Shown: positions 22,700 to 45,150 of the stretch, in pieces
How the letters are laid out: the number at the start of each line of letters is the position of its first letter
Position numbering within the stretch: the first letter of the stretch is position 1
From: a virus
IMG/VR virus record: IMGVR_UViG_3300031237_000251
Reading direction: 5' to 3' (one strand)
Length of the DNA: 64,000 bases
Translations under genes and position numbers: made by a program
The notes under the pieces: generated by a model
Database searches by the model: none
The model's input: only the letters and a program-made list of their open reading frames with translations
Told to the model about the DNA's origin: nothing

Positions 22700-22728
22700 G
22701 AACCTATGTGACTGCCGACGATCGGCAA
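22700..22728 (-). promoter_or_regulatory. Phage late-promoter motif, copy 1
   Basis: TTGC-CGATCGTCGG-CAGTCACATAGGTTC, about 27 nt upstream of ATG 22673. Confidence 0.7.
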
Positions 22729-22757
22729 GGGCAACCGCCTGCTTCGCCTTGCCCAAA

Positions 22758-22773
22758 GTACCTTTTTTGGTAC
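22758..22773. promoter_or_regulatory. Putative TA operator palindrome
   Basis: GTACC-TTTTTT-GGTAC just upstream of the toxin ATG 22783. Confidence 0.55.
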
Positions 22774-22782
22774 ACCATCCCC

Positions 22783-23124
22783 ATGACAGACACCCCTGCC
22801 GTCCTCAGCGTCAAATTCTTCCGCACCGAAGCGGGGAACGAGCCTGTCCGCGAATGGCTAGCCGACCTCCCCAGGGAGCAGCGCCGGCAGGTCGGCACCG
22901 ACATCAAAACCGTCCAGCTCGGCTGGCCCATCGGAATGCCGGTAGTCCGTAAGCTCGACAGCGGACTATGGGAGGTCAGGACGAACCTCGGCGACACCAT
23001 CGCCCGCGTCATCTTTACCGTCGTAGGCGCCGACATGGTGTTGCTCCATGGCTTCATCAAGAAGAGCCAGAAAACCCCAGCAGTCGACCTACAAACGGCC
23101 AGGCAGCGCAAATCCAAACTGTGA
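22783..23124 (+). CDS. RelE/HigB-like (Gp49-type) type II toxin
   Basis: VKFFRTEAGNEPVREWL...GWPIGMPVVRKLDSGLWEVR...ARVIF...VLLHGFIKKSQKTP. Confidence 0.85.
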   Translation: MTDTPAVLSVKFFRTEAGNEPVREWLADLPREQRRQVGTDIKTVQLGWPIGMPVVRKLDSGLWEVRTNLGDTIARVIFTVVGADMVLLHGFIKKSQKTPAVDLQTARQRKSKL

Positions 23125-23132
23125 GGTACAGC

Positions 23133-23435
23133 ATGAACCCGCACATCGGCTCCGACTTCGATGACTTCCTCGCCGAACAAGGCCTGTCGGAAGAGGTTTC
23201 CGCCGCCGCACTCAAACGCGTCATCGCCTGGCAGATCGCCGAGGCCATGAAAGCGCAGCACATCAGCAAGAAGGCCCTGGCCGAGCGCATGCACACTAGC
23301 CGCACCGCCGTGGATCGCGCGCTCGACGAGGACGATTCCGGCATGACCCTCGCCACCCTTGCCAGCGCCGCGCGTGCGCTGAAGCGGCGCGTCGAGATTC
23401 GCCTGCTTCCCGAGGATGGCGCGACGCACGCTTGA
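23133..23435 (+). CDS. XRE-HTH antitoxin (HigA-like)
   Basis: MNPHIGSDFDDFL...HTH ISKKALAERMHTSRTAVDRAL; follows the toxin. Confidence 0.85.
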   Translation: MNPHIGSDFDDFLAEQGLSEEVSAAALKRVIAWQIAEAMKAQHISKKALAERMHTSRTAVDRALDEDDSGMTLATLASAARALKRRVEIRLLPEDGATHA

Positions 23436-23476
23436 GCAGGTGCGAGGCCTGACGCCGAGGCTTGCCGCACACCGGG

Positions 23477-23938
23477 TCAGACTATTTCGGCGGTGTTCGT
23501 GAAGTTCGTCCAGAACGCCGGCAGCGGCGGCGCCACCTGAAACACGGCCTCCAGCAGCGACGGCTCCTCGCCCAGAGCCTCGGTCAGTAGCGCAGTCACG
23601 TCCACCTTGTCCCCCTCGGCCGGGCTGGCGATCGACAGGGAGTGGCGATCGCCGCCCCATATCGCCAGGGTGTACCAGTTCAGGTCGACCGAGTAGCTTG
23701 CCGTGGCATCCCGAAAGACCAGGCCGTAGGCGTCGCCGGCATCCAGCGTGTAGGGCGAGCCGACGCCGCACCAGTTGCGCCCGTTGATGACGGCCGCCGC
23801 CAGCCCGGCGTCGGCTGCCAGGGTGTCGATGGAGGCCACCGGCAGCTGGCCCCAATAGTTCGTGTAGTCCCCCGGTACCGGATCGACCTCGCCGACCTTG
23901 CGCCAGAGCCCATCAATTTCGCGGTTCAGCTGTGCCAT
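23477..23938 (-). CDS. Phage structural-region hypothetical protein
   Basis: Tightly packed co-directional gene with phage-like codon usage. Confidence 0.7.
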   Translation of the reverse strand: MAQLNREIDGLWRKVGEVDPVPGDYTNYWGQLPVASIDTLAADAGLAAAVINGRNWCGVGSPYTLDAGDAYGLVFRDATASYSVDLNWYTLAIWGGDRHSLSIASPAEGDKVDVTALLTEALGEEPSLLEAVFQVAPPLPAFWTNFTNTAEIV

Positions 23939-23950
23939 GTTGCGGCCTCC

Positions 23951-24541
23951 TTACAGTGCACGGGTATCGATGTATTCCATGGCGACCAGGCGCTCGCCCT
24001 CGCCGGTCGTCACCAGCGCACTGGTATCGCCGAACGCGGCATTGCCCCCGGCTGCTGGCGTGGAGACGCGCGTCGAGCCGTCCGCGCTCAGGGTGATGAC
24101 CGCCGGGTCGGGGTAGGTGATCCCAGTGGACGCATCGACCCGCCGCAGGGCGACCAAGGCACCGTCCGGGGTGGCCACGATGGCGCTCTTGGCGATTCGG
24201 TAGGTGACCGAGCCGACCATGCCCGCCAGCTCGACGACATCCGTAGCCGACACCTCCAGCAGGCGCGTGCGGTAGTAGGTGCTCCCGTTGAGGGCCACGC
24301 CCGACAGCGTCACGATCCGCGCCACGTTGCCATTCGCGCCGACCAGCTGCGAAACCCGAAGCGTCGTCTCGGCGCCGGCATGCTGCGCCAGCAGGCCGTC
24401 CACGTCGGCCCCGAGCGAGGCGTCGAGCTGTGCCCCGGCGATCGCCGACTTCGCCAGGACTTCCCGGGTCGCAGGGTCCATCCGCACCAGCACCTTGCCC
24501 GTGCTGATGGTTGCCAGCAAAAAGAGATACGGCTTATCCAT
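23951..24541 (-). CDS. Phage structural-region hypothetical protein
   Basis: Tight operon packing; beta-rich sequence. Confidence 0.7.
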   Translation of the reverse strand: MDKPYLFLLATISTGKVLVRMDPATREVLAKSAIAGAQLDASLGADVDGLLAQHAGAETTLRVSQLVGANGNVARIVTLSGVALNGSTYYRTRLLEVSATDVVELAGMVGSVTYRIAKSAIVATPDGALVALRRVDASTGITYPDPAVITLSADGSTRVSTPAAGGNAAFGDTSALVTTGEGERLVAMEYIDTRAL

Positions 24542-24550
24542 GAACGATCC

Positions 24551-26395
24551 TCATAGGCCGCTACAGATGCTGATATCCCGCAGCGGGTTGCCAAGGTAGA
24601 AGGCCGGCCCCGTCGCGCCGGCCATCACGGTTTGCCAGGTCCGCCCGCCGTCTCGGCTGAGCTTGTACTGGCTGGTGGGCTCCCCGTAGTAGGAGAAAAC
24701 CCAGGCCATCAGCACCGCGGGGCTGCTCTCGGCTTCCGGCTGGACCACGGTGAAACACACGTTGGTGTTGTCGTGCTCGAGCAAGGTGCCGATCAGCCCA
24801 CGGCTTTCCACGAATGACAGGTCACTGGCGCGCAGGACGACCAACTGCCAGTCGATCTCGGCGAAACGGGTACCGGCCTGGCTGCGCGGCGCCGCGACGA
24901 CGCCGATCAGGCCGTAGCCCAGGTACTGCGCGACGCAGTGCTGGGGGGCGCTGGAGTAGCCCAGGTTGTCCTTGTGCCCCCAGGGGCTGTAGGCCCACGA
25001 CAGGCGCGGCCAGAACGGCGCGTAGCCGGCCGCCCCCAGCCCGGTCGTCAACTGGTCGCCGGTCGTGGTGAAGAACACCAGCTGAATCGTGTCCGGCTGG
25101 ATGATGGTGCCCGCCTCCCCGGCGGCGCCGCTGGCGGTGAACTGCACGCAGGCCAGGGTGGTGACCGTCTCCTCGCCGTCCTGGGCGGGGCGTCGGTACT
25201 CCAGGCGGTTGAGCGACAGGATGAAGGGAAGCGCGGCGGCGCCAGTCAGCACGTAGCCCGTCAGGGTCTGCTGGTAGGCGGCGCTGGCCTTGGCGATGGT
25301 GGTGACGCTGTACTGCCCGGTCTGCCGGTTGATACGGACCAGCTGCGTGCCCATGGTGTCGGTGTAGGTGTACGCGCCGGCATCGGCCCGCCGCACCGAG
25401 CTGACCACGGCGACCAGGCGATCGTCCGCGTCGGCCATGCCCACATCGGCGATCCGATGATCCAGCCAGAGCGAACCATCCAGCGGATCGGGGACCGGCC
25501 GCAGATCCGGGTTCGGGTTCTGCGAGGCGGGCACGAAGATGCCCCAGCGCGGCAGCAGCCAGCGGTTCAGTACATCCCCCTCGCCCTCGGGAACGGCATG
25601 CCGGGCCCGGAACAGCCCCACCATCCAGCCGTGCTCCAGCACGTCCCAGCCCTTCTCGGCACTCTTCTGCTTGTCGTAGCGGGAGTAGGACGCGGCGATC
25701 ACCACCTCCTCGTACTCCAGCCCATCGCTGTCGTCGGTGACGATCCGCGGCGCGCTGGTCGCCTGGGAGTTGCTGGTATACGGGCGGAAGGTGAACAAGG
25801 CGTCCCCGGCCCACTGCTGGAAAAAGGCGTCGGTGAACAGGTAGTTCATCTGCGCATCGAGGCGCGGCGTGGTCTGCTTGTTGATCGGCGTGCGGCCGTT
25901 GACCGCCCGGGCGAACACCATGTAGCTGGTGTTCTCGTCGGCCGTCTGCCGGTCCATCGAGCGCTCGGTGGCCATGACATAGCCGCTGTTCCAATTCGTC
26001 TGCCCGGCGCCGGCCCCGTAGGGCGTTGGGATATCCCCGGTCGAGGCAAAACCGCTGGCAGTGGCGATCAGCACGTTCTCGCCGGTGATGGTCAGCACCT
26101 CGGGCGGCGCGGGCGGCTCCAGGGTCGGCAGCAGGTCGCCGCGGGTCAGGTGGCGGGCCAGGTGGGGAAAGGCGCTGCTCGCGCCCCAGCGATCGCAGAA
26201 CAGCCAGTCGGCCGGCGGCTCGATCGCCGTCACCCGGACCACATCGCCCTTGGCCACGGCGCGCAGGATGAAGCCGTCGTGAAGCTCGTTCATCACGCCG
26301 CCGCCGCGGCGCACCAGCTTCTCGCCCAGCCGGCGGGCCTGTTGGCGCAGCTTCGCCGCGGCGCCACTGGTCGGCCGGTAGATGATCTTGGCCAC
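24551..26395 (-). CDS. Putative tail / baseplate protein
   Basis: GTG start at 26395 (MAKIIYRPT...) right after the upstream stop; beta-strand-rich, 614 aa. Confidence 0.7.
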   Translation of the reverse strand: MAKIIYRPTSGAAAKLRQQARRLGEKLVRRGGGVMNELHDGFILRAVAKGDVVRVTAIEPPADWLFCDRWGASSAFPHLARHLTRGDLLPTLEPPAPPEVLTITGENVLIATASGFASTGDIPTPYGAGAGQTNWNSGYVMATERSMDRQTADENTSYMVFARAVNGRTPINKQTTPRLDAQMNYLFTDAFFQQWAGDALFTFRPYTSNSQATSAPRIVTDDSDGLEYEEVVIAASYSRYDKQKSAEKGWDVLEHGWMVGLFRARHAVPEGEGDVLNRWLLPRWGIFVPASQNPNPDLRPVPDPLDGSLWLDHRIADVGMADADDRLVAVVSSVRRADAGAYTYTDTMGTQLVRINRQTGQYSVTTIAKASAAYQQTLTGYVLTGAAALPFILSLNRLEYRRPAQDGEETVTTLACVQFTASGAAGEAGTIIQPDTIQLVFFTTTGDQLTTGLGAAGYAPFWPRLSWAYSPWGHKDNLGYSSAPQHCVAQYLGYGLIGVVAAPRSQAGTRFAEIDWQLVVLRASDLSFVESRGLIGTLLEHDNTNVCFTVVQPEAESSPAVLMAWVFSYYGEPTSQYKLSRDGGRTWQTVMAGATGPAFYLGNPLRDISICSGL

Positions 26396-26396
26396 G

Positions 26397-27368
26397 CTAC
26401 AGGGTCTCGATTTCCGCGGTGAGGGTGCCGGCCGAAGCCGCCGCCTGGGACGCGACATCGCCGAAGGCGCGGGCGGCGTTGGCCAGCGCCGCCGCCTTGC
26501 CCGAGGCATCGCTGTTCTTGCGGTTGGTGATCCGGTTGCGATCGACCTCCAGATCCGTCTGCACGTCCGCCTGCTTGGCCTTGAGCCCCAGCTCCTCGAA
26601 CGCCACCTCGACGTTGTAGTAGGAGGACAGCGCCGAATACAGCGACGACAGGGCCTGCGCCTTGAGCCGGGCGCGCTCCAGATCCTGATCCGGCAGGGCG
26701 ATCCACTGGCGGTAGAAGTCGGCCAGCGCCTGCAGGATGCCCAGCTTGTAGGTCAGGGCCTGCTGTTCGGCGAATTTCAGGATCTCCAGCTTGATCTCGG
26801 CGTCCTTGATCGCCTGCTCACGGTTCACGTCGAGGATGGCCGTGTCGGCCCGCTCGGCGGCCTCGCCCAGGGCCGCGACCATGGCCCCCGGCGGCAGGGT
26901 GAAGCCGCGGCCGGTGAAGGCCGCCTCCAGCTGCCGCTGCTCGGTGGCCATCGTGCGATAGGCGCGATCGCGCGCCCGGTGCCAGACCAGCTCGAACACG
27001 GTGGCATCCTGGCCGAACGGCTTGACGCCGGAAATCACGCCGCACAGCCAGTCCTCGGGCAGCTCGCGCAGGCACTTGTCCATGGAGGGAAAGAACTTGT
27101 CCATCCAGGCCGCGGCATCGGCGTTGAGCTTCTCCAGGCGCGTATCGGTGGTATCGCCCAGGTCCAGCACATCCGACAGCTTCGGCGGCGTGCCGAGGCT
27201 CGGCTTGCTGAGCGAGTAGGTGAAGTCCGGCTCGCGCAGGTAGGCGAAGTCGTTGGTCGGCTCGATCAGGTTCCAGATCATCGACCGGGTGTTGTCGACC
27301 TGCAGCATGGCCGAGTTGGCCAGCTTCTGCAGGAAGTCGGTCGAGGCGTTGTAGTTGCTCGTCGTCAT
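26397..27368 (-). CDS. Phage structural protein, helical / coiled-coil
   Basis: 323 aa, operon overlap with neighbours. Confidence 0.75.
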   Translation of the reverse strand: MTTSNYNASTDFLQKLANSAMLQVDNTRSMIWNLIEPTNDFAYLREPDFTYSLSKPSLGTPPKLSDVLDLGDTTDTRLEKLNADAAAWMDKFFPSMDKCLRELPEDWLCGVISGVKPFGQDATVFELVWHRARDRAYRTMATEQRQLEAAFTGRGFTLPPGAMVAALGEAAERADTAILDVNREQAIKDAEIKLEILKFAEQQALTYKLGILQALADFYRQWIALPDQDLERARLKAQALSSLYSALSSYYNVEVAFEELGLKAKQADVQTDLEVDRNRITNRKNSDASGKAAALANAARAFGDVASQAAASAGTLTAEIETL

Positions 27369-29242
27369 TACCGCATTCCCCTTCTCGCCGCCACGGCGAC
27401 GATGTGCTCAATGGTGTCCAGCTCGAACTCGGTGGCGTCGGTGACTTCCAGGGTGAGGTTCCAGCGCCGGGCAGCGACGCCCCGGGCCGGCGCGGCGCGC
27501 ATCATCGGCCCGCGCGCCACCGCCCGGTAACTGCGATCGACACCATCGGCGCGCAGCGTGACGATCACCTCGCCATCGGTGGTCAGGCCCAGGAAAACCT
27601 CCTGCACCGTCTTGGCCTGCACGGCGCCGTAGTCGGTCGCCCCGAAGTCCAGGGTCACGGCGATCGGGCTGCCGTCGTCGTCCCCCGGGCGCATGCGGTA
27701 CAGGCCATCCGGCCGGCAGGCGTACAGCGTGTTGTCGGCCAGCGCGAAGGCGTCGAAGTCGAAGCCGCTGTAGGTGGTCAGGGCGCCGGTCAGGACGTTG
27801 ACGGCGTACTGCACGGACGCGGCGGTACCGGCATCGGCCGTCCCGCCCAGCAGCAGGCCGGATTGGATCACGGCCGACAGCGCCCGGTAGGCGCTGACCT
27901 CGCTACTGATCGCCAGCGCCTCGAACAGGGCGCCGTCGATCACCACGCCCAGGGTGAAACCGCTGCTCAGGCCCAGTTGCTCGGCCAGCACGGCGCTCTG
28001 CCGGCGGCTGGCCACCCACAGGTCGGCGACCACGAGGAAGTTGTCGCGCGCGTTGCCGTAGTCGGTGGGGGCGAAGGTGAGCCCTGCGCCGGTCAGCGCC
28101 GGCAGGGTGCCGCGGGCCTCCGCGTAGGCATGATCGGCGCCCAGGCCTTGCAGCGGCGGCAGCGCCGCCTCGATGCGCCCCACCGAACCCGTCAGCCCGC
28201 GGAGCAGCCCCGACAGGGGCGGCAGGATGCCGACCACGGTAGCGCGGGAAACCTGCGGGAATCCGCCGTTCAGGGTGCCCGCCAGCGCCGGCAGCGTGCC
28301 CCGCACTTCGCTGTAGGCATGGTCTGCCGCGTGGCCGCCGAGCGCCGGCAGGCTCCCCTCGATCCGCCCTATCCCGCCGCCGATCCCCGACGCCAGCCCG
28401 CCGAGCGACGGCAGCCGGCCCCCACCGAAGGCATAGGACGCGCGATCGGTCAGCAGGCCGACCAGCGGCGGCAAGGTGGCGCGGATTTCCCCGCTCTGCA
28501 CCAGGGCGGCGACCAGCTGCGGGTTATCGACGTAATCGCCCGAGGCGTAGATGGTCGCATCGAGGTACGGCGCGCCCTGGGAGACAACGGCGCTGGTGTA
28601 GGCCCAGCCATCGTAGAGATAGGTCACTTGGCCGAGGGAACGGCTGATAGCCAGACGCTTGCCGGCACTGTGCGGGGTCGGGGCGGTGGCCACCACCACC
28701 CCGGATTCCATGACGGCGACCACGCCCTGGTGGACGTAGAAGGCGTGGCTCGGCTCGGCCGGCGAGGTGGACTCGTCGGCGCCCACCAGGCCGACCACGA
28801 CGCCGATCGCCGCCGGGCCCACCTCGAACGTGAAGGCCCCGTCGCCGACCAGGGGCCTGATGCTGCGCGCGCCGCCGTTCCAGCCATCGATGGCCGTGTA
28901 GGTGAGCTTCGCCGGCTCGGCCGGTATCGCCGCGACCGCCGGGTAGCAGACGCGCCGGGTGATCGGCACCTGCTCGTCGTTGCCGCTCTCGGTGTTCAGC
29001 ATCACCCCGGCAAAGCCGCCGCTCGCCAGGTCGCTGAGCGCATCGCGTACCTGGCCGGGGCTGACACTGCCGAAGCCCGTAGTCACGCCGTTCCCGTCCA
29101 CCAGGCCCACGTCGTACCCCGACAGGCCCGACGTGGACTGATAGCCGATGACCGTGGTGACGCAGTACGCCGGGCTGCCCGGCTGATAGGGCGAACTCGG
29201 CGTGTACTGAGCCTGGGCCAGCTTCTTCAAGCGGTTCGCCAT
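27368..29242 (-). CDS. Putative tail protein with internal G-x-L-P-x-L-x-G repeats
   Basis: 624 aa with seven LPxL repeats in the middle. Confidence 0.75.
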   Translation of the reverse strand: MANRLKKLAQAQYTPSSPYQPGSPAYCVTTVIGYQSTSGLSGYDVGLVDGNGVTTGFGSVSPGQVRDALSDLASGGFAGVMLNTESGNDEQVPITRRVCYPAVAAIPAEPAKLTYTAIDGWNGGARSIRPLVGDGAFTFEVGPAAIGVVVGLVGADESTSPAEPSHAFYVHQGVVAVMESGVVVATAPTPHSAGKRLAISRSLGQVTYLYDGWAYTSAVVSQGAPYLDATIYASGDYVDNPQLVAALVQSGEIRATLPPLVGLLTDRASYAFGGGRLPSLGGLASGIGGGIGRIEGSLPALGGHAADHAYSEVRGTLPALAGTLNGGFPQVSRATVVGILPPLSGLLRGLTGSVGRIEAALPPLQGLGADHAYAEARGTLPALTGAGLTFAPTDYGNARDNFLVVADLWVASRRQSAVLAEQLGLSSGFTLGVVIDGALFEALAISSEVSAYRALSAVIQSGLLLGGTADAGTAASVQYAVNVLTGALTTYSGFDFDAFALADNTLYACRPDGLYRMRPGDDDGSPIAVTLDFGATDYGAVQAKTVQEVFLGLTTDGEVIVTLRADGVDRSYRAVARGPMMRAAPARGVAARRWNLTLEVTDATEFELDTIEHIVAVAARRGMR

Positions 29243-29252
29243 GGGCGGCTCC

Positions 29253-29699
29253 TTACTGCAGCGGCTGGGTCAGCGCCACGTACTCGACCTTCTGGATGGC
29301 ATCCTTGGCCAGCGCCACGCTGTTCAGGTTCAGGAACTTGCCGGCGACTCCCACATCACCCTGCAGGCGCACGTCGGTGGTGCTGGCGGCGCCCGTGCCG
29401 GTCGGCTTGGCGAAGCGGCAGAACGTCGCCGTGCCCGCTGCTGCCACGGTGCCCTGCCAGACTTGGGTCGCGTCCTTCTCCAGGGTGCCGCCCACGGCAT
29501 TGGCGGCGAACGCCAGGCCGGAGCCATCGCCGTTGCCGCTGATGTCGCAGAGCAGCACGGCATCGCCCGGCAGCGCGGCATCGGCGCTGGCCGGCTCGGT
29601 ACCGGCGTAGATGAAGAGGTGCAGGCCGGTCAGCGCAGTCTTGAGGCTTCCGGAAGAAAGCAGGGCATTAGCCAGCCCGGTGCTGATTTTGAGGGACAT
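29253..29699 (-). CDS. Phage tail-associated protein
   Basis: MSLKISTGLANALL...GTATFCRF...RLQGDVG, in the structural operon. Confidence 0.75.
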   Translation of the reverse strand: MSLKISTGLANALLSSGSLKTALTGLHLFIYAGTEPASADAALPGDAVLLCDISGNGDGSGLAFAANAVGGTLEKDATQVWQGTVAAAGTATFCRFAKPTGTGAASTTDVRLQGDVGVAGKFLNLNSVALAKDAIQKVEYVALTQPLQ

Positions 29700-29708
29700 G
29701 GTGGCTCC

Positions 29709-30209
29709 TTACAGGCTGGTGGGGATCAGGGTCAGGCCGGCGGCCAGGGTGAAGGGCTCGCCGGCATCGATGTCTTTCGGGCTGGCGAAGCGGGCGATCG
29801 ACAGCAGCCGGCCGCCAGAGCCGCCCTTGGTGGACGTGCTGACGATGAAGGCGCCGTAGATCCGCTTGGCCTGGTTGAAGGTGAACGTCGCCTTGTTGCC
29901 GAGGCTGTCGATTACCGCCTTGCCGTCGTAGGAATGGGTCCAGGCCGGCCGGGTCGCCTCGTCGTAGGCGGTGCACTCGGTCAGGAGGCTGGGCAGGTCG
30001 GCGGCCTTGAAGGCGGCATCGGGCACGGTGTTGCTCTCGAACAGGCCGACATACCAGTTGCCGATCGCCGCCTCGCTGCCGCGCAGCAGGCCGGCTACGA
30101 AGTCGATGGCCTCCTGGGGCAGCAGGTTGTGATCCTCGGCGCGCTCAATGCGGCCGTCGTGCCGCTGAATCTCGGTGGTGTAGGTAAAGCCAGTGCCAAG
30201 CAGGGTCAT
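29709..30209 (-). CDS. Phage tail-associated protein
   Basis: 166 aa, ATGA overlap with 30206-31423. Confidence 0.75.
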   Translation of the reverse strand: MTLLGTGFTYTTEIQRHDGRIERAEDHNLLPQEAIDFVAGLLRGSEAAIGNWYVGLFESNTVPDAAFKAADLPSLLTECTAYDEATRPAWTHSYDGKAVIDSLGNKATFTFNQAKRIYGAFIVSTSTKGGSGGRLLSIARFASPKDIDAGEPFTLAAGLTLIPTSL

Positions 30210-31423
30210 GGGCGAACTACCTCCCCAATGAAAAAGTCCGTCGCGGCCAGCTGGTTGGCGCCCTGCGGCCCGCGGGTGGTGGTGACGATCAACTGATTGC
30301 CGTTGTGCTCGATGACCCCGGCGGCGCCCTGCGCGGTCAGTTCGGGGGCGTAGTGCTGGCGGTTGACCAGCTGCAGGCCGCCGCTGCCGTCGCCGACGCT
30401 CACGGCCTGGCCGTAGCGGGTCATCCAGGCGCAGCGCTCGTCGGGCAGGATCACGGCCGAGCCCCGCAGCGCCGGGAAGTTGAGGATTTCGCGCTGGCTG
30501 GGGGTGTCCCCGGCCACATCGCTCAGGCTGTAGCTCACGTCGCTGCTGACATAGAGCGTCGTCTGATCGCTCATCAGCTCCCCGACCTCGGCCGGGAACT
30601 GGAGGAAACCGCGCAGGGGGTCGAGCAGATGCGGGCGCATGGGCGCGGTCAGCCAGACGACGCGGCCCTGGGCGATCGCCAGTTGGGAGCCGTGGGCGCA
30701 GATCACGCTGCCGATCACCGGGGCCCGCAGGCGCGCAGTGGTCAGGGTGCGGGTGTCGTCGCGCAGGCTGGTGACGCGCAGCGGCGTCGCGGCGCTGCCC
30801 TGCCCCTGCAAGTAGAGGGTCTGGCTGTTCGGGTAGCCCAGGTAGAGATTCACCCGGCCGCCCTCCGGCGGCGCCGGCAGCTCCACGTCCAGGGCGCCGC
30901 CCTCGGGGACCGTCACCAGCAGCGGCGTATCGGTCCCGCCCTCGCGGCCGTCCGCGTCGGTGAAGGTCACGGCCAGGCGGTAGATACCCGCCCGCAGCGC
31001 GCCGCCGGTCGTGACGGCCGGCAACGGCTGGGCCAGCACGTCCGGCACGCCCCAGGCCCGCACGCGGCGGCCGTCATACTCGAGGCTTTCGTTGGCGGTC
31101 TGGAAATACAGGGTGTTGTTCAACACGGCGCCGATGAACTGGCCGGCGCCGGCAATGGTGCGCAGCACGCGCGCGCCTTGGGTCTGCGGGTCGAACTCGA
31201 TCAGCTCGGGGCCATCGGCGATCAACAGCTTGTCGCCCAGGGCCAGGACGCCGCGCACGGCGTTACCGGCATAGACCTGCTCGTAGCCGGAGCGCAGATG
31301 CAGCTCGCCGCCGGGGGTGGCATCGACGTTCACGGCCCGGCGGACGAAGCCCTTGGGTACGCGATCGGCCGGAGTCAGGTTATCGACTCCGCCGGTCCAC
31401 TGGTTTTGGATGAGGGGACGCAT
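30206..31423 (-). CDS. Putative tail / head-stabilisation protein
   Basis: 405 aa beta-rich; first gene behind late-motif copy 2. Confidence 0.7.
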   Translation of the reverse strand: MRPLIQNQWTGGVDNLTPADRVPKGFVRRAVNVDATPGGELHLRSGYEQVYAGNAVRGVLALGDKLLIADGPELIEFDPQTQGARVLRTIAGAGQFIGAVLNNTLYFQTANESLEYDGRRVRAWGVPDVLAQPLPAVTTGGALRAGIYRLAVTFTDADGREGGTDTPLLVTVPEGGALDVELPAPPEGGRVNLYLGYPNSQTLYLQGQGSAATPLRVTSLRDDTRTLTTARLRAPVIGSVICAHGSQLAIAQGRVVWLTAPMRPHLLDPLRGFLQFPAEVGELMSDQTTLYVSSDVSYSLSDVAGDTPSQREILNFPALRGSAVILPDERCAWMTRYGQAVSVGDGSGGLQLVNRQHYAPELTAQGAAGVIEHNGNQLIVTTTRGPQGANQLAATDFFIGEVVRP

Positions 31424-32175: not shown

Positions 32176-32177
32176 CG

Positions 32178-38039: not shown

Positions 38040-39310
38040 ACTCGCCAGTCGGGTGGCGGGGCTTCGTCGTAGTCGGTATCGAAGGTGTTTTTCATGAGCG
38101 GCACGGCCTGGCCGATGTAGCGGAACATATCGGCGCCATGGCTGAACTCATCGTGCAGTGGAGCCATCGGCTCGCCGGTCTTGGTGTGGATGTCTCGCCG
38201 ATACCGTTTCAGGCACTCCAGCAGCCGGGCCGTCTTGTTCTTGTCGAAGTAGCAGCGTGGGAACAGCATGCGGGCCGCCTTGATGCCTTCCTCCACGCTG
38301 GTTGCAGCCTGCACCACGACTTCTCGGCGCCCCATGGCACGCAGTTGCTCCTCGGTGCTCTTGCCGGTCTGGAAGTTACGGGTGCGGCCATCGTGTGGCA
38401 GGTAGTCGGTGCCCCAGCGATAGGGCCGCTTCTCCAGCTGGGCGACATACCAGTCCAGCGTGCGGTGGCTGTCCTCGATGTAGTCGATAAGCCGCACGTC
38501 CTGAGGGCCGCGCTGGACCATGCCGATGGTCATGGCGTCGTTCCAGCCGAGATCCCAGATGGTGTGCACCGGCAGGGTCGGGTCGTATGGCACGGGACAG
38601 ACGCGGCCATCGGCATATAGCGCCTCGATCTCGTAGCGGTAGATGGCGCCCTCGGCCACGGTCCGAGGTTTGCCTTCCCAGATGTGCTCGTAGTCCTCCT
38701 TCGAGCTACCACGCTTGGCCTTCAGGCGCTCCTGGTTCAGGACTTCGGGAAACCAGGGGTTGTCCCGCCAGTTGATTTCGCAAACCCAGGTATCGTCGCT
38801 GGGGGTGGCGATGAAGCGGACATAGGTTTCATCGGTGTCCATGTCCGGGTTGAGGGTGAGCCAGATCTCGCTACCTTCCTTGCGGATGGTGGGAATCAGT
38901 ACGTCCCAGCTCTTCTTGCTGACGCCGTGCGCCTCCTCCACCCACACGATGTCGACACCCTCGAACGACTTGATGGAGTCGACGGTATGGCTCTGCAGGC
39001 CGGTGAACAGGAACAGCGATCCATTGGCACCGCGGATCTCGGTATCGAGCACCTCGTAGAACGACTCCATTCCCAACTTGACCACCTGGTCCTTGAGCAG
39101 CCGGTGCACGGAGTCGCGCATGGACTTCTGCACCTCCCGGGCGCAGAGAATGCGCAGCGGTCTGTCCGCGGCGATGGTCAGCAGCACGCCGGCCACGCTC
39201 CACGACTTGCCGCCTCCGCGACCTCCATGCATGACCTTGTAGCGGCGAGGATCGAACAACGGAGACAGCTTCTCCGGTAGCCGTAGTCTGGAAATCGGAG
39301 GCTCGATCAT
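38036..39310 (-). CDS. terL: Terminase large subunit (PBSX family)
   Basis: Walker A HGGRGGGKS, Walker B VWVEEA, nuclease WDLGWND and HGADMFRY. Confidence 0.93.
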   Translation of the reverse strand: MIEPPISRLRLPEKLSPLFDPRRYKVMHGGRGGGKSWSVAGVLLTIAADRPLRILCAREVQKSMRDSVHRLLKDQVVKLGMESFYEVLDTEIRGANGSLFLFTGLQSHTVDSIKSFEGVDIVWVEEAHGVSKKSWDVLIPTIRKEGSEIWLTLNPDMDTDETYVRFIATPSDDTWVCEINWRDNPWFPEVLNQERLKAKRGSSKEDYEHIWEGKPRTVAEGAIYRYEIEALYADGRVCPVPYDPTLPVHTIWDLGWNDAMTIGMVQRGPQDVRLIDYIEDSHRTLDWYVAQLEKRPYRWGTDYLPHDGRTRNFQTGKSTEEQLRAMGRREVVVQAATSVEEGIKAARMLFPRCYFDKNKTARLLECLKRYRRDIHTKTGEPMAPLHDEFSHGADMFRYIGQAVPLMKNTFDTDYDEAPPPDWRV

Positions 39311-39960
39311 TCGTCGTCATCCTCCGGGTGTGGCCGTGGCTTCACAAACTCCAGTGCGATCCTGGCGCCAGCGCTGCCGCCCTCCGGAATCGCGCTCTTG
39401 GCGTCCAGGCCGAATGCCTGGCGCTGCATGTCCACGCACACCCGCAGGGAGTCCGCCAGCGCCTTCATGGTCTTGGCTCGCTCCGGCAAGGAGATGATCC
39501 GCTGGTACAGGTCGTTGAGCTTGTCGCGGCCGTGCTCGTCCTCATCCCTGAGCAGGTCGCCCAAGGCCTCGAGCAGCTCGACGTTCTCCCGGCCGGCTTG
39601 CAGCTCAAGCTCGTCCAGCAGGCGCATGGCGATAGTCTTGGCCCGCTGGATATCTCGCCGCTGCCCGAGCAGAACCTCAGCTATGCCCTGTGCATTGGCT
39701 TCGATAACCTGCCGCTCGGCGACCTTGGTTTCCATGGATACCGGCGTGGATACCGCCGCTTTGGATACCAGTGCATCCGCCTTGGCATGGATCTTCGCGG
39801 ACAGGTCGCGCTCCCATCCGTCACGCTTTGCACGCTTGTTGATGGCTCCGTGGGATATGCCGTGCTCGGCTGCTATCTGGCGCAAGGTCTTGATGCCTGC
39901 CCGATAGTCCAGCTCGATGCGCTCCCAATCCGGCGCTGTGTTTTCGGGCTTCTCGCTCAC
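39307..39960 (-). CDS. terS: Terminase small subunit
   Basis: GTG 39960; PDWERIELDYRAG...IAAEHGISHGAINKRAKRDGW HTH; overlaps terL. Confidence 0.85.
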   Translation of the reverse strand: MSEKPENTAPDWERIELDYRAGIKTLRQIAAEHGISHGAINKRAKRDGWERDLSAKIHAKADALVSKAAVSTPVSMETKVAERQVIEANAQGIAEVLLGQRRDIQRAKTIAMRLLDELELQAGRENVELLEALGDLLRDEDEHGRDKLNDLYQRIISLPERAKTMKALADSLRVCVDMQRQAFGLDAKSAIPEGGSAGARIALEFVKPRPHPEDDDE

Positions 39961-39988: not shown

Positions 39989-40017
39989 GACGCTATGTGA
40001 CTGGCACGGCCTGGCAA
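39989..40017 (-). promoter_or_regulatory. Phage late-promoter motif, copy 4
   Basis: TTGC-CAGGCCGTGC-CAGTCACATAGCGTC, after terminator 40025-40047. Confidence 0.7.
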
Positions 40018-40024: not shown

Positions 40025-40047
40025 AAGAAACCCGGCGCGTGGCCGGG
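40025..40047 (-). terminator. Terminator after the fibre gene
   Basis: Minus strand CCCGG-CCACGCG-CCGGG-TTTCTT. Confidence 0.65.
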
Positions 40048-40076: not shown

Positions 40077-41993
40077 CTACGATGACGGAAACGGGGTCAC
40101 GGTCACTGCCACGTCCTGGCTGAACGTGGCGCACTGGCCGCCGCTGATCGCCGCAATGGTGGCGTCTGCGCGCTTGCTCCAGTCGGAGACGTTGTAGCTC
40201 AACACGCTCGGCGTCATGTCAGGGGCGGAGAGCGTCAGGACTTTGCCATCCTGGCTGAACGACAGCCTGGAGTATGGATAGGTCGGGAGTGCAACCGGGC
40301 CAGCGAGCTTGTCGCCGGTGAGGTTATTGTAGATCAGCAGGTACGGCGCCGAGGCCACCGACACCGCCATCAGCTCACCGTTCGGGCTGTACGCGACCGC
40401 CACCGCGTTGGACGCGGGCAGTGCAGCGAACGGCATGGACTTGTACACGCTCGAGTTGGGGTCCAGCGCGTAGGTCGACAGGTACGGGGCCCCGCCGTGT
40501 GCTACAGAGAACATTTCATCGTGAGGATCGAAGGCAACCGCGTTGGCGTACCCTGGCAGTGCCGTGTCCACCGCCGGCTTGGCCGCCCAGGTAGCCGTGT
40601 CATAGATCGCGAGGTACGGGGTTTCAGCGGTCCCAAGGACGACGGTATTTCCAGCCGGGTTCACGGCAATAGCAGTTGGCGCCGCCGATAGCGCAGGTCC
40701 TCCCGTTGCCGCCCAGGACGCGGTATCAAACACCGTCAGGTACGGGCTGGCCGAATGGATGACGTACAGCCGCCCACTGTTCGGGCTGAACGCCACGTCC
40801 GTGATCGTTTCGCTCCCGTTGCCTGCCCACTCAGCCAGCAGTTTCCACCCCTTCACCCGGAATACGGACAGGACGTGGGTCAGAGGGCCGGATGCGCTCT
40901 CGCGGGCCAGCGCAATCATCGTCCGGTCAGGGCTCACCGCGATCTTGAGTACCTTCGTGCTCACCAGCGCCGGTAGCGCGATCTCGCTCCAGTCGCTCGG
41001 GCTGAACGCCCGTAGATACGGGGAGGCGCCGACGCCGACGTACAGGGCGCTCGGCAGGCTGTAATCGGCCAGCCGGCCGGAGAGCGTCCAGATGTTCTCG
41101 GCGATGCGCTTGAGCTTGGCCACCCCGTAGCGTTCCGCGATCCGTGGGTCGCAGTCCCCCGGCAGGCGCAGCGTCACGCCACTGCCCGCGGCGAACTTGA
41201 CCGCGCCCGCGCCGGCCTGCTCGATCTCCAGCTCGGCATTGGCAGCCCAGCCGCCCGTCGCCTGGTCAGCGATGGTCAGCACCGCCGGGTCTGCCGTCTC
41301 GGATACCAGATAGCTGCTGTCATGGCTGCTGGTCAGGCTCACGGCGGTCGTGGTCGAGGTGGCCACCGCACTGTTGCCCCCGCCGCCGCCACTGCTGCCG
41401 CCCTCGGCAATGCCCGCCAGCTTGGTCTTCTCGGCATCGGTGAAGGCGTTGGTATCCGCGTTCGCCTCGTACAGTGCCTTGACCTGGGCGGCAGTGAGGC
41501 TGGTCGCGCTGGCTTGCGGCTTCCAGGCCGCATCGCTGGCATCCCATAGGTAGCGCATCACATCGGCGCCGGTTCCGGCATCCACGTCCGCATAGTCGCC
41601 TGCGATCGGCGAGGCCACGACGGCCTGCAGGGCGGCGAGGTCGACATAGGTGCCCTTGAAGTGGCTGCTCTCCAGGCCGGCGAGCTTGGTTTTCTCGGCG
41701 GTGGTGAAGTCATTGGTCGACAGGCCTTTACCGTCTACGGCGTCGACTTTCGCAGCCAGGGCCTGGGTCATGGCCTGGGTGGTGACGAATTCCGCGTGGT
41801 TGTAGGCCTGCTCGTGTGCCTTGACGGCCGCCGCTCCAGCTCCGCCCTTCTCCACCAGCACCCAATCGGCGGCGGAGGCAGTCCCCTTCGCCATGTACTG
41901 GTCGCCGCTCTCGGTGTCGGTGTAATGGGCAGTGAGGCTGGGGGGCACAGACGTGGGCGCGCCCGCTCCCTGTACGATGTGCTGGACGGTCAT
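40077..41993 (-). CDS. Fibre / receptor-binding-like protein with a C-terminal beta-propeller
   Basis: DGKGLSTNDFTTAEKTKLAG fibre motif (twice), Gly linker, repeated [ST/A]PYL blades. Confidence 0.7.
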   Translation of the reverse strand: MTVQHIVQGAGAPTSVPPSLTAHYTDTESGDQYMAKGTASAADWVLVEKGGAGAAAVKAHEQAYNHAEFVTTQAMTQALAAKVDAVDGKGLSTNDFTTAEKTKLAGLESSHFKGTYVDLAALQAVVASPIAGDYADVDAGTGADVMRYLWDASDAAWKPQASATSLTAAQVKALYEANADTNAFTDAEKTKLAGIAEGGSSGGGGGNSAVATSTTTAVSLTSSHDSSYLVSETADPAVLTIADQATGGWAANAELEIEQAGAGAVKFAAGSGVTLRLPGDCDPRIAERYGVAKLKRIAENIWTLSGRLADYSLPSALYVGVGASPYLRAFSPSDWSEIALPALVSTKVLKIAVSPDRTMIALARESASGPLTHVLSVFRVKGWKLLAEWAGNGSETITDVAFSPNSGRLYVIHSASPYLTVFDTASWAATGGPALSAAPTAIAVNPAGNTVVLGTAETPYLAIYDTATWAAKPAVDTALPGYANAVAFDPHDEMFSVAHGGAPYLSTYALDPNSSVYKSMPFAALPASNAVAVAYSPNGELMAVSVASAPYLLIYNNLTGDKLAGPVALPTYPYSRLSFSQDGKVLTLSAPDMTPSVLSYNVSDWSKRADATIAAISGGQCATFSQDVAVTVTPFPSS

Positions 41994-42439
41994 GCTGCTG
42001 CTCCAGTGGTTAGAACTTGATTGGCGCCATCGGTGAGAAGGTTGCCGCTGGCATCGGTCAGGGCATTGGCGGGAACAGACGGGGTAGTCCCCTGCTCCAG
42101 GGCGGCGACGCGAGACGACAGCGAGGCGATCGAATCGGCCTGGTTGGCGAGCTTGGTGCTTTGCGAGGCGTCGGATTGCTGCAGGGCGGCGAGCTGCTGG
42201 GCCTGTGCGGTGAGCGCCTGCTGCAGGGCGGCGATGGATTGGCCCTGGCTGGTGACAGTCTCGGCCAGCGCCTCAACGAGGCCGGCGGCGGTGCCCGCGG
42301 GATCAGCGCCCACGTCAGCGACCTTGAGCACGACGGCGCCCGTCTGGCCGTTCACCGACTCGACACCGCCCGACCGGCCGCGGAGGCCGCCGCTACCGAC
42401 GATGACGCCGCCGCTGCGCTGGATGACGATCAGGCCCAT
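41990..42439 (-). CDS. Short fibre-like coiled-coil protein
   Basis: VESVNGQTGAVVL motif and heptad repeats. Confidence 0.65.
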   Translation of the reverse strand: MGLIVIQRSGGVIVGSGGLRGRSGGVESVNGQTGAVVLKVADVGADPAGTAAGLVEALAETVTSQGQSIAALQQALTAQAQQLAALQQSDASQSTKLANQADSIASLSSRVAALEQGTTPSVPANALTDASGNLLTDGANQVLTTGAAA

Positions 42440-43041
42440 ACCGTCACCTCCGGGGCGATCACCACCCGGCTCGGGCCGATCACGGCGACCACGGCGCCAT
42501 CGGGCCGAATGGCCTCCAGATCGTAGGTGCCACTGCTCCAGGCGATCGCCGCCGTCTGGTCCGCATCCAGGCCGATGACGAAGGCGCTGTTGGCCACGTC
42601 CACCTCGACCGTGCCATCCGCCTGGTCGGCCGGGTCGGAGCTGAATGACAGCAGGACAGCGCCGCCGATGCGGTCGCGGATCTGCATGCGGGCCTTCCAG
42701 CCCTCCAGATCGGCCGGCCTGGGATAGACCAACACGCTCGGCGGCGCGAAAGCCCTGGCGCCCACCATGTCCAGCTGGTCGAACTCCAGGGTATCGGCGT
42801 CAACGACGAGGGGCGTCCAGTATTCGCCCTCGGGCGTGTTGAGCTCGGCCGGCGCGCGGGTGCGCTCGATGCGCACGGCCCAATTGTCCGGCACGCCGTG
42901 GCCGGTAACAGTCAGGCGCACCGGGGCCTTGCTCGGCATGGCAGTGATGTTGCGGTAGACCAGCTGCTCGTCGTGGTAGCCGAACGACTGCGCCAGGGTC
43001 TTACCCTTGGTAATGGTCAGGTCGAAGGTGGGGGCGGTCAT
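42430..43041 (-). CDS. Phage hypothetical structural protein (Ig / BppU-like)
   Basis: GWKARMQIR...YDLEA motif; first gene behind late-motif copy 5. Confidence 0.65.
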   Translation of the reverse strand: MTAPTFDLTITKGKTLAQSFGYHDEQLVYRNITAMPSKAPVRLTVTGHGVPDNWAVRIERTRAPAELNTPEGEYWTPLVVDADTLEFDQLDMVGARAFAPPSVLVYPRPADLEGWKARMQIRDRIGGAVLLSFSSDPADQADGTVEVDVANSAFVIGLDADQTAAIAWSSGTYDLEAIRPDGAVVAVIGPSRVVIAPEVTVWA

Positions 43042-43067: not shown

Positions 43068-43096
43068 GACGCTATGTGACTGCGCAGAGAGCGCAA
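43068..43096 (-). promoter_or_regulatory. Phage late-promoter motif, copy 5
   Basis: TTGC-GCTCTCTGCG-CAGTCACATAGCGTC. Confidence 0.7.
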
Positions 43097-43162: not shown

Positions 43163-43471
43163 TCAGGCGCATACCCAGCAATCAAGCATGTAAAAGGCGA
43201 AAAGGGCGCACCATGAGCCGATGATGACCATGGCGGGATGCATGACAACCCATTCATTCAGACGACGCCCGAGGCAGCTATCCGTTGTCGTCGGGCTGAA
43301 TGGCTTATTCCTCCAGCGATACCGATCAATCGCACCGCAGATGAGCCACACAGCCACCGGCAACATCAATCCCATCCATAAGGGCAAAAGTACTGCTTCC
43401 GTGATCAAGATACTGCTCCAGCTACCGCTACTTTGCGGCCTGTCTGATTCCCATATTGTGAACGAGCTCAC
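43163..43471 (-). CDS. Small 2-TM membrane protein (moron)
   Basis: AT-richer than its flanks; two hydrophobic segments. Confidence 0.5.
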   Translation of the reverse strand: MSSFTIWESDRPQSSGSWSSILITEAVLLPLWMGLMLPVAVWLICGAIDRYRWRNKPFSPTTTDSCLGRRLNEWVVMHPAMVIIGSWCALFAFYMLDCWVCA

Positions 43472-43610
43472 TGATGTCTCAATAACATCATGCTAGGGCA
43501 ATGGCGATTCTGACTTGGCGCAACGTTAAGCGCTATAGCTCTGGAGAAGAATTGATACTGCGGAAGTGGCCTGCATCAGGCGGGGTGAAACTTTTTCCGG
43601 CACAAACAAA

Positions 43611-43637
43611 AACGGCGAGGGTATTAGCCTCGCCGTT
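43611..43637. terminator. Terminator downstream of the lysis cassette
   Basis: AACGGCGAGG-GTATTAG-CCTCGCCGTT flanked by A/T runs. Confidence 0.65.
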
Positions 43638-43846
43638 CATTTTTCCCTGTTTTCCTTTTGCTCATCATCCTGACGAGCAGCCGCTTATCCTGCGACTTTC
43701 CACGGCCGCCATCCTTGGTCAGCCCGCATCGTTCCTTCGACGCTTTATGGGATTCACTATATCCAAGAGCCGGCCTCGAACATATTGGGAAAGCTCTCGA
43801 TCTCCTGTAGGCAATGGCTTACAGCGGACGCGCTGGAGAGAGCCCG

Positions 43847-44101
43847 CTACTTGCCGTCCCCTTGCCTCAGCGCCTTGACCAGCCCGTTATGCAGCGTCCT
43901 GCACTCCTCGTACTGGCCGGCCAGGGCGATGTCGGCTTTCACCACGTCCCCCATAGGGGCGGTACCGTCCTCAGCGGTCGGTATCGCCTCCATCGGCGGG
44001 CACTCCTGCAGCAGCCCCTCGTCCATCTGCTCCGCTCCGCGCTGCGTTGAGCAGCTGCACACCATCAGCAGGCACACGGCAATTGATATAAACCGGATCA
44101 C
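43847..44101 (-). CDS. o-spanin (Rz1-like lipoprotein)
   Basis: GTG 44101; signal IRFISIAVCLLMVCS-C; overlaps the i-spanin in another frame; CPP motif. Confidence 0.7.
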   Translation of the reverse strand: MIRFISIAVCLLMVCSCSTQRGAEQMDEGLLQECPPMEAIPTAEDGTAPMGDVVKADIALAGQYEECRTLHNGLVKALRQGDGK

Positions 44102-44342
44102 GGACAATCTCCTTTTCGGCCTTCTGGTAGATGGTCCGCTGCTCAATACGGATATTCCCGATCGCGCTCAGCGTCTGCCGGGTTACGTCGGCGACCAGGG
44201 CGCGCTGGTGTTCCTGCTGCTGGATCGTGACGAGCTCCGCGCTGTCGGCCTGCCAGTCGCGGATCTGCCAGCCACAGGCGAATCCGGCGCCGGCCAAGCC
44301 CGCATAGGCCAGCAGGCGCAGTCCATCCACGGGGAAGATCAT
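43971..44342 (-). CDS. i-spanin (Rz-like)
   Basis: N-terminal TM, coiled region, CRVPADGVQLLNAAR; ATGA overlap with the endolysin. Confidence 0.8.
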   Translation of the reverse strand: MIFPVDGLRLLAYAGLAGAGFACGWQIRDWQADSAELVTIQQQEHQRALVADVTRQTLSAIGNIRIEQRTIYQKAEKEIVRDPVYINCRVPADGVQLLNAARSGADGRGAAAGVPADGGDTDR

Positions 44343-44833
44343 TGCTGCGCACTCATGCACTGCTGGTAGACGCGCTGACGGTCAGCCCACAGTCCGGGGC
44401 AGATCCGGTTGCCCGGCCTGGAGCAGTCGTAGCCATTCGAGAACTTGAACAGCAGGATCGCCTCACAAGCGCCGCGATAGTCCTGGGCGCTCAGGCGCTT
44501 GACGATGGTCGAGCCGCAGAAGCGCCCCGGGCCGATGTTGTGCGCCAGGGCCAGGTAGGCGTCGTACTCGGCCTGGTAGAGCGGGACGTGAACGCACTGT
44601 TTGACTGCCCCCTCGAACTCCGTCACCTCGCGCAGGCTGCGGTTGATCGCAGCGACCGGCGTGATGGTGTCACCCATCCGCACGCCGGAGGTCGAGCCAA
44701 AGCCGAGGGTCGGCAGGGATTCGCCGCGGGTGGGGTCCGGGTAGGCCTCGGGGCTGAAGCCCTCGCGGGTCAGGATACCGGCGAAGGCCGCCGCACTGAG
44801 GGTTAGCGCGGTAATGGCGATTCGACCCTTCAT
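44339..44833 (-). CDS. Endolysin, GH24 lysozyme, possibly SAR-type
   Basis: Hydrophobic N-terminus then REG...YPD...TLGFG catalytic motif, AHNIG. Confidence 0.9.
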   Translation of the reverse strand: MKGRIAITALTLSAAAFAGILTREGFSPEAYPDPTRGESLPTLGFGSTSGVRMGDTITPVAAINRSLREVTEFEGAVKQCVHVPLYQAEYDAYLALAHNIGPGRFCGSTIVKRLSAQDYRGACEAILLFKFSNGYDCSRPGNRICPGLWADRQRVYQQCMSAQQ

Positions 44834-45057
44834 TTCGTGCTGACCTCCTGCTGGCGTGCCTTGCGCGCCCGAAGTTCGCGGCGCAGCAGGAATGCCATCT
44901 GCATCAGCACATAAAGCGCGGTCAGGACGCTGACGATGATGCTGGCCTGGTCCGCCAGGCTCGGTCCGCTGGTAAGAACAACGCCGCTGGCGGCAACGGC
45001 CGGTGCGGATTTGCCCGCCTCGATCAGGACATTCGTGGTGCTGGTGTTATCGCTCAT
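44830..45057 (-). CDS. Holin
   Basis: 75 aa with hydrophobic helices and a basic C-terminus, upstream of the endolysin. Confidence 0.75.
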   Translation of the reverse strand: MSDNTSTTNVLIEAGKSAPAVAASGVVLTSGPSLADQASIIVSVLTALYVLMQMAFLLRRELRARKARQQEVSTK

Positions 45058-45121
45058 GGGGTACAGCCTATGCTGGGGTCGATGATCGGCTCCGCATAGG
45101 AGCCCATGCAGTGCCACGGCG

Positions 45122-45150
45122 GACGCTATGTGACTGCATGGGCCAGACAA
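45122..45150 (-). promoter_or_regulatory. Phage late-promoter motif, copy 6
   Basis: TTGT-CTGGCCCATG-CAGTCACATAGCGTC, upstream of the holin. Confidence 0.7.

Follow-up and report, generated by a model that had tools for sequence, protein, structure and literature searches.

A six-copy putative late-promoter element and a candidate 74-residue regulator in lambdoid prophages of the Pseudomonadaceae

The 64,000-nucleotide viral record IMGVR_UViG_3300031237_000251 of IMG/VR (hereafter the window, meaning the whole stretch) contains a lambdoid prophage in which six copies of a promoter-like site precede the late genes, and in which the gene of a 74-residue protein lies directly upstream of the first copy. 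Analyses of the window and of its relatives point to this pair of site and protein as a new late-gene switch, the six sites being probably activator-dependent late promoters driven by the 74-residue phage protein. The textbook scheme for lambdoid phages is antitermination by Q at one late promoter. In a clade of such prophages found in Pseudomonas, Azotobacter, Stutzerimonas, Halopseudomonas, and relatives, this scheme appears to have given way to five or six late units, each with a promoter of its own, and to a single regulator that is very small and unannotated. Late control from several promoters had already been suggested in an original prediction made from the letters of the window alone; new here are the likely regulator, the spread of the pair among Pseudomonadaceae prophages and viral contigs, and a sigma70 signature in positions of the site that had not been selected for.

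Six promoter-like sites and a candidate regulator

The window has six exact copies of the 10-mer CAGTCACATA, at 22705, 31461, 35674, 39994, 43073, and 45127, all on the minus strand and at the places where the original prediction had put them. When one mismatch was allowed, eight matches were obtained against 1.46 ± 1.24 expected, and none of 100 shuffled sequences reached eight. The longer pattern TTGC-N10-CAGTCACATAG was matched at all six sites with no or one mismatch. The two additional one-mismatch matches of the 10-mer, at 6295 (plus strand) and 55406 (minus strand), came without the rest of the pattern and are compatible with chance. No copy of the full site was found in the early and cargo DNA of the window; this confinement to late regions, previously noticed by eye, holds in the window as well as in the 58 related loci described below. 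In an alignment of 170 nucleotides around the six sites, the invariant positions were TTG, CAGTCACATA, and a TC four bases beyond, and the flanks were otherwise unrelated, so that the copies are not remnants of one duplicated segment. The common form of the six sites is TTG(C/T)-N11-AGTCACA-TA(G/A)nnT.

Numbered from the regulator gene onwards, and all on the minus strand, putative late promoter 1 (45123..45150) has the -35 hexamer TTGTCT at 45150-45145, the core AGTCACA at 45135-45129, and the -10 hexamer TAGCGT at 45128-45123, with a predicted transcription start near 45116. The same hexamer TAGCGT is found in late promoter 2 (43069..43096; -35 TTGCGC, AGTCACA 43081-43075, -10 at 43074-43069) and late promoter 3 (39990..40017; -35 TTGCCA, AGTCACA 40002-39996, -10 at 39995-39990). 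Late promoter 4 (35670..35697; -35 TTGCGT, AGTCACA 35682-35676) has TAAGTT at 35675-35670, and TAGGTT is found in late promoter 5 (31457..31484; -35 TTGCGT, AGTCACA 31469-31463, -10 at 31462-31457) and late promoter 6 (22701..22728; -35 TTGCCG, AGTCACA 22713-22707, -10 at 22706-22701). The genes headed by the six sites are all on the minus strand, and their likely start codons lie 65, 27, 29, 63, 33, and 27 nucleotides beyond the -10 hexamer for promoters 1 to 6, respectively, which agrees with the earlier claim that each copy stands just upstream of a late gene block. Also as claimed, two of the sites (35674 and 39994) lie directly behind terminators consisting of a hairpin and a T run, at 35716-35732 and about 40031-40047. 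Between site and first gene, no terminator was found for the five sites within the scanned range 30000-47000. Short GC-rich hairpins lacking a T run are possible in the minus-strand leaders 22660-22700, 31425-31456, 35610-35668, 43045-43068, and 45060-45122; in two cases the ribosome-binding site lies inside the hairpin, and such structures may be due to chance in DNA this rich in GC.

We interpret the sites as sigma70-type promoters with a weak -35 hexamer, a 16-bp spacer, and a weak -10 hexamer, as in the original prediction. From relatives, 36 non-redundant sites were gathered with a pattern fixing only TTG and AGTCACA. At the unselected positions, T-12 was present in 33, A-11 in 31, and T-7 in all 36 of the sites. 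The base after TTG was C in 27 sites, A in five, and T in four, and the base before AGTCACA was C in 29 and G in six. T, A, and T at positions 1, 2, and 6 of a hexamer located 16 bp past TTGnnn constitute the signature of a sigma70 promoter; the arrangement found is TTG(C/A/T), a 16-bp spacer, and a TAnnnT-like -10, with the hexamer pattern present in 111 sites from 58 loci. AGTCACA occupies -19 to -13 and adjoins the -10 hexamer. The -10 hexamers are poor (TAGCGT, TAGCCT, TAGGTT, and TAAGTT), and a generic sigma70 scan of 30000-47000 listed none of the five sites in this range, which marks them as weak by consensus. Within the first 35 transcribed bases of the 36 sites, no conserved -10-like pause element was found at a fixed place.

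The candidate late regulator of 74 residues is encoded at 45218..45442 on the minus strand, with an ATG at 45442 behind GGAGG in an open reading frame (ORF) that is open from 45463. Its gene is the last of the early-right operon, after RusA, and ends 67 nucleotides upstream of site 1, a position that corresponds to the slot of lambda Q between RusA and the holin promoter. The protein could be assigned to no Pfam family at E <= 0.01, and neither a Q-family nor a Mor-family Pfam match was obtained. Its sub-threshold Pfam matches were all to helix-turn-helix families, sigma70 region 4 among them, and its sole PHROG match was a weak one (7e-6) to the C-terminal part of an HNH endonuclease family. 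A profile search of PDB sequences gave no match, and no homologue was found in 50,697 phage genome records at E <= 0.001. Searches of Pfam, PHROGs, and PDB sequences did not place the protein in the Mor/C, Ogr/Delta, or Lpa families, and its neighbours in the ESM Atlas were viral hypothetical proteins with scattered helix-turn-helix labels.

Few close relatives, in seven clusters, were returned by a word-indexed search with the 74-residue protein, and 465 matches at E <= 0.001 by an exhaustive one. The majority of the latter are larger proteins carrying the regulator's module of ~45 residues in three to eight tandem copies, and about thirty are single-module proteins of 60-105 residues. The tandem-module proteins include P0010, P0016, P0020, and P0022, of which P0020 (749 residues) has an N-terminal ResIII/DEAD helicase; the repeats of these larger proteins had no match at the Pfam threshold. 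Single-domain proteins of the regulator family have 66-80 residues, and three tryptophans are invariant in the family, as is the RR-R in the region of the third helix (W-Q-T-V-K/R-M-R-R-Y-R-G). An AlphaFold2 model based on a 34-sequence alignment, with a predicted local distance difference test (pLDDT) score of 76 overall and about 90 for residues 11-50, shows a beta-hairpin (residues 12-21), three short helices (22-49), and a basic, poorly ordered tail. The predicted fold is a small domain of beta-hairpin and helix-turn-helix.

Co-occurrence of site and regulator in related genomes

The nearest genome (G001, 4.6 Mb), Azotobacter bryophylli KCTC 62195, contains eight copies of the 10-mer CAGTCACATA. 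Six of them lie within 22 kb on the same strand of a syntenic prophage, and one of these six precedes a different downstream gene and has different flanks. A seventh copy is located 37 nucleotides upstream of a 74-residue ORF that is a clear homologue of the window's regulator, and the eighth looks random. Three copies of the regulator family were found in this strain (contigs C1, C29, and C33; loci L014, L018, and L022), one in the full prophage with six sites and two isolated, both of these being preceded by a site at 46 bp. Cross-talk may occur among the elements resident in this strain.

A sample of 301 genomes from across the same family, the Pseudomonadaceae, was searched with the pattern TTG-N12-AGTCACATA. 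Matches were found in 19 genomes, four of which had five or six copies on one strand, clustered within 20-35 kb; the other 15 had one or two matches, no more than the control with the reversed pattern. The regulator is encoded in 16 of the 301 genomes, and all four genomes with clustered sites are among these 16, with 27 to about 300 bp between the end of the regulator gene and the first site. In the 285 genomes without the regulator gene, the motif was not above background and there were never more than two matches. Since matches outside the prophage clusters did not exceed the reversed control, the motif is not a word of the host genomes, and the possibility that it is equally common in host DNA was not borne out. 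Several late operons thus have in common one promoter-like element specific to the phage, which is lacking in early DNA and in the host.

Four metagenomic or genomic contigs encode homologues 67-75% identical to the 74-residue protein. In each of them the gene follows replication and nin-type genes and directly precedes the holin, and TTGC-N11-AGTCACATA(G/A)(C/G)(G/T)T is present between regulator gene and holin (four of four). On the one long contig of the four, the small terminase and scaffold genes are headed by copies too, and a terminator stands ahead of the scaffold copy. The same architecture heads holin, small terminase, scaffold, and other late genes where the regulator is 50-75% identical.

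Further loci were chosen by the protein alone. A scan of one genome per species for homologues of the regulator, made with the closer alignment set A3, gave 26 loci in Azotobacter, Stutzerimonas, Pseudomonas, Halopseudomonas, Thiopseudomonas, and Geopseudomonas, and a scan of IMG/VR gave 32 viral contigs. In these 58 pooled loci, sites (TTG-N12-AGTCACA followed by a T-N4-T hexamer) were counted over about 0.5 Mb on either side of the regulator gene. We found 103 full sites downstream on the strand of the gene, one upstream on the same strand, and seven on the opposite strand, some of the latter lying back to back with the first site downstream of the gene. From the start of the regulator gene to this first site the distance is 205-920 bp, with a median of 517 bp. 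The layout is that of the window in 38 of the 58 loci, with the regulator at the end of the early lytic operon after cII, replication genes, and RusA. In twelve loci an exact AGTCACA precedes the regulator gene by 46-123 bp, in some cases as a pair of direct repeats at a distance of 16-18 bp, and the remaining eight have only a one-mismatch copy, a more distant copy, or none. Flanking sequence and neighbouring genes differ widely among the loci, and the pairing of site and regulator is kept down to about 50% protein identity. No AGTCACA-like element was found on three contigs with homologues ~40-50% identical, which are too short to be informative on this point.

The second of these layouts is exemplified by L027:3476-10264 (Pseudomonas sp. 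M47T1 contig029), with similar arrangements in L023, L030, L033, L035, and L062. Here the regulator gene is preceded at 100-123 bp by AGTCACA lacking a TTG -35, at times in two directly repeated copies 16-18 bp apart. Further upstream, at 5-6.5 kb, additional sites stand ahead of a small ORF and a pair of very large ones (808 and 1181 residues) that have no Pfam match and lie downstream of DUF1376 and DnaB-like replication genes; CATCTGGA is conserved after the sites of this layout.

A partner site lies back to back with the first late promoter in many relatives, on the opposite strand and at a distance of 33-43 bp (L013:1681-1722, L025:10467-10508, and L029:10493-10534; also in L019, L024, L031, and L037). 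The partner carries the hexamer TCAACT, TCCACT, or TGGACT, the second position of which is never A, and it faces a small gene between regulator and holin. The first late promoter of the window has no such partner.

A proposed late switch and its alternatives

Our proposal for the course of events is as follows. After induction, the early promoter would be freed from cI, and the 74-residue protein would be made as the last product of the early-right operon. It would bind AGTCACA(TA) immediately upstream of the -10 hexamer at all six promoters, and the bound protein would enable host RNA polymerase to start at these weak late promoters. The lysis, fibre, packaging, head, tail, and ejection-protein units would thereby be switched on together, with terminators separating some of the units. 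We infer that the protein binds DNA, that it activates rather than exerting another kind of control, and that it contacts the polymerase, activation being suggested by the weak hexamers and by gene order. The asymmetry of the site and the small size of the protein suggest that it probably binds as a monomer, and the strict register and orientation of the site relative to the -10 suggest that it works in contact with the polymerase. In the 12 loci with a site upstream of the regulator gene itself, autoregulation by positive feedback is suggested. More tentatively, and with some doubt on our part, a monomeric helix-turn-helix module of ~45 residues with a basic tail may bind the seven base pairs just ahead of the -10 hexamer, at the place of an extended -10, and either supply the contact that the weak -10 lacks or act as a stripped-down Q-like factor. 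If true, such a way of activating promoters would be undescribed among phage late regulators, and the protein would be the smallest sequence-specific late switch in a lambdoid phage, replacing Q across a clade of Pseudomonadaceae prophages.

Late control of this general kind is known from other phages. The late promoters of P1, which is not lambdoid, head several operons and consist of a -10 hexamer and, in the spacer region, a conserved phage-specific element used by the small activator Lpa, which is made earlier in the lytic cycle, together with the host sigma70 polymerase; this P1 element takes the place of the -35 and is an inverted repeat with its centre near -22. The window resembles P1 in having several late operons, one phage element, and one small phage protein, but its element is asymmetric, is located at -19 to -13, and retains a TTGC remnant of the -35. 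The control by Ogr in P2 is likewise of the same kind, with several late operons and one phage factor, but the protein family found here is not that of Ogr. In Mu, the activator C binds as a dimer to a dyad upstream of and overlapping the -35 region. Four late promoters of Mu with -10 but no typical -35 hexamers need C (16.5 kDa) and host polymerase (PMC2582627). The two systems are alike in being multi-promoter late regulons with poor -35 hexamers and a small phage activator; they differ in that the site of the window is a single asymmetric 7-9-mer adjoining the -10 and in that the 74-residue protein is half the size of C. In a search of the literature outside subscription journals, no paper joined the motif with a bacteriophage or described such a late activator in temperate phages of Pseudomonas.

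Several points count against an activator acting at these sites or limit the support for it. The location of AGTCACA at -19 to -13 is unusual for the binding site of an activator and usual for that of a repressor or for a loading element of the Q/AlpA type. TTG and AGTCACA were fixed by the pattern used to collect the 36 sites, so that only the other positions count as evidence, and the 58 loci are akin, so that their counts are not independent trials and overstate independence. A Foldseek search of PDB with the AlphaFold2 model returned nothing at E <= 0.001, the best matches being lac-repressor headpieces with E about 3, and the best Z obtained with VIA-align, over 48,161 chains, was 2.7, which is not significant. 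A complex prediction with residues 375-617 of P. aeruginosa RpoD gave no verdict and is neither support nor counter-evidence for binding. In addition, relatives of the late genes were found in four public RNA runs, from wastewater and rice-paddy libraries, in the form of assembled (Logan) contigs that cannot show starts, ends, or strand.

Of the other explanations, the one that survives best, unlikely as we consider it, is that the 74-residue protein is a minimal processive antiterminator resembling Q or AlpA, that AGTCACA is its loading element, that the promoters fire alone, and that terminators are read through. The gene stands where lambda has Q, with the first late promoter and the holin immediately following it, and the protein has a basic C-terminal tail. 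As with Q and AlpA, the regulator lies directly upstream of a late or lysis promoter, the element is located between -35 and -10, and a helix-turn-helix would read it. AlpA moreover comes from the same host family as the window's prophage (P. aeruginosa). Q and AlpA, however, are proteins of eight or more helices with a ring in the RNA exit channel, and each serves one promoter with a sigma-dependent pause and a downstream terminator, whereas the window has six promoters, with terminators located upstream of promoters. AlpA needs a pause and a downstream terminator (PMC9371919, PMC7969949); its element, GGGACG, lies between -35 and -10 (PMC9371919) and is unrelated to AGTCACA. AlpA itself has eight helices, an N-terminal ring located in the RNA exit channel, and DNA-contact residues numbered up to 142 (PMC9371919), as against one small domain here. 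No terminator separates any of the five scanned sites from its first gene, the leaders are 27-65 nucleotides long, and no -10-like pause element keeps a fixed position over the first 35 transcribed bases of the 36 sites. Several promoters are located directly behind terminators, both here and in relatives, and read-through would make such promoters pointless. Finally, both hexamers are weak, and promoters firing unaided would lead to expression of lysis genes in the lysogen.

It is improbable that the sites are read by some other factor, either of the host or an unrecognised phage protein, and that the 74-residue gene is a linked passenger. The prophage does contain several small ORFs without assigned function. 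A host regulon is made unlikely by the finding that the motif is not above background in the 285 genomes without the gene. The genes flanking the regulator vary among loci while regulator and motif stay together, and the motif also accompanies isolated copies of the gene outside any late region.

Least probable of the three is that AGTCACA is an operator and that the small protein is a repressor occluding the spacer and -10 of otherwise active late promoters, and of its own gene too. Operators overlapping spacer and -10 are typical of repressors, and the copy that precedes the regulator gene in 12 loci would be compatible with negative autoregulation. On this explanation, however, the protein would be made just when the late genes must come on, since a gene at the end of the early lytic operon (38 of the 58 loci) would be silent in the lysogen, when repression is needed. 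All 104 same-strand sites of the 58 loci carry the T-N4-T hexamer in register, and such a fixed register fits a polymerase partner better than an operator, a comparison in which spacing and orientation relative to the -10 were themselves fixed by the collection pattern. The weak hexamers also speak against repression, as does the finding of no other late activator among the ORFs scanned.

Other readings of the sites were rejected. For promoters of a single-subunit or virion RNA polymerase, the core is loosely T7-like, but the 2965-residue virion protein of the prophage is without a polymerase domain. The spacings and conserved positions do not fit sigma54, extracytoplasmic function (ECF) sigma factor, or cII-type (TTGC-N6-TTGC) sites. 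A late module common to F116-like phages was also discarded, the motif being absent from the 30-kb stretch of phage LKA5 that was scanned and the protein from the phage collection.

A link to F116-like phages, which the original prediction had named as a place to look for the motif, held for the head genes: LKA5, H66, and other Hollowayvirus (F116-like) phages of P. aeruginosa have the same order of capsid, portal, and large terminase genes, with ~75% identity in DNA. As far as the LKA5 stretch and the protein search go, it did not hold for late control. In the 30-kb stretch of LKA5 that was examined, no copy of the motif with fewer than two mismatches was found, nor was the regulator present there. 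From this and from the lack of the regulator in the 50,697 phage records, the late-control module is not common to the named relatives.

With an element of 9 bp and a protein of 74 residues, the pair of site and regulator is compact. It gives an annotation rule for the late operons of such prophages, and it could serve as an orthogonal, tightly off promoter/activator pair for the engineering of Pseudomonas. A site touching the -10 also raises the mechanistic question of how the polymerase is helped from there.

Late gene units and remaining features of the prophage

Unit 1 is the lysis cassette (43971..45057, minus strand, as are all late units), identified by Phage_lysozyme and by holin and spanin PHROGs, with holin (44830-45057), endolysin (44339-44833), and an Rz-like spanin (43971-44360). 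According to the terminator scan, the cassette is closed by a bidirectional terminator at 43610-43638. Between this terminator and promoter 2 lies an ORF of 102 residues (43163-43471, minus strand) without a family match; two of the few generic sigma70-like matches of the region are found in the same interval, and it may be a separately expressed gene. Unit 2 (40077..43041) encodes a 203-residue protein (phrog_1084), a tail-like protein of 149 residues, and a tail-fibre-like protein of 638 residues. It ends in an intrinsic terminator (40025..40047, minus strand; CCCGGC-loop-GCCGGG and TTTCTT, read from the sequence) that is located directly upstream of promoter 3.

Unit 3 (35739..39960) contains the small terminase, the start of which is a GTG at 39960 behind AGGAGG, the large terminase (38036-39310), and the portal (35739-38039), and it is followed by an intrinsic terminator (35712..35732, minus strand; GCCCGC-loop-GCGGGC and TTTT) directly upstream of promoter 4. 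Unit 4 (31507..35606) comprises a scaffold-like gene (34512-35606), the major head protein (33185-34477), and three virion proteins, and unit 5 (23057..31423) a head-closure-like gene (30206-31423) followed by virion and tail proteins down to 23057. Unit 6 (10092..22673) encodes a 545-residue protein, a 2965-residue polyvalent protein (12136-21033, minus strand) with InPase, ART-like, PBECR1, and LPD39 domains, and a 747-residue protein, all of which are presumably ejected. The 3' end of the 2965-residue gene overlaps, by 200 nucleotides, the start of the longest reading of the next ORF (10092-12335, minus strand; 747 residues, no family).

Upstream of the regulator, the early-right operon (45460..47715, minus strand) consists of a cII-like regulator (47410-47715), an O-like replication protein with a DnaT domain (46441-47406), a P-like helicase loader (45906-46679), and RusA (45460-45909). 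A cI-like repressor with HTH_3 and Peptidase_S24 domains is encoded at 47772-48734 on the plus strand, opposite to the late genes. This gene content, in which no homologue of Q, of a sigma factor, of Mor/C, or of Ogr/Delta was detected among the window ORFs scanned, matches the lambdoid switch without a recognisable Q gene that had been described earlier. The leftward early operon (about 56000-64000) encodes a PD-(D/E)XK nuclease, an SMC-like ATPase, and an Arc-like protein; no sigma factor and no antiterminator was found in it. Cargo-like genes are present in the prophage arms and in the immunity region, at 8073-9578 (minus strand), 54554-55237, and 55514-55747, and comprise a methyl-accepting chemotaxis protein, two DUF2845 genes, and one DUF1654 gene.

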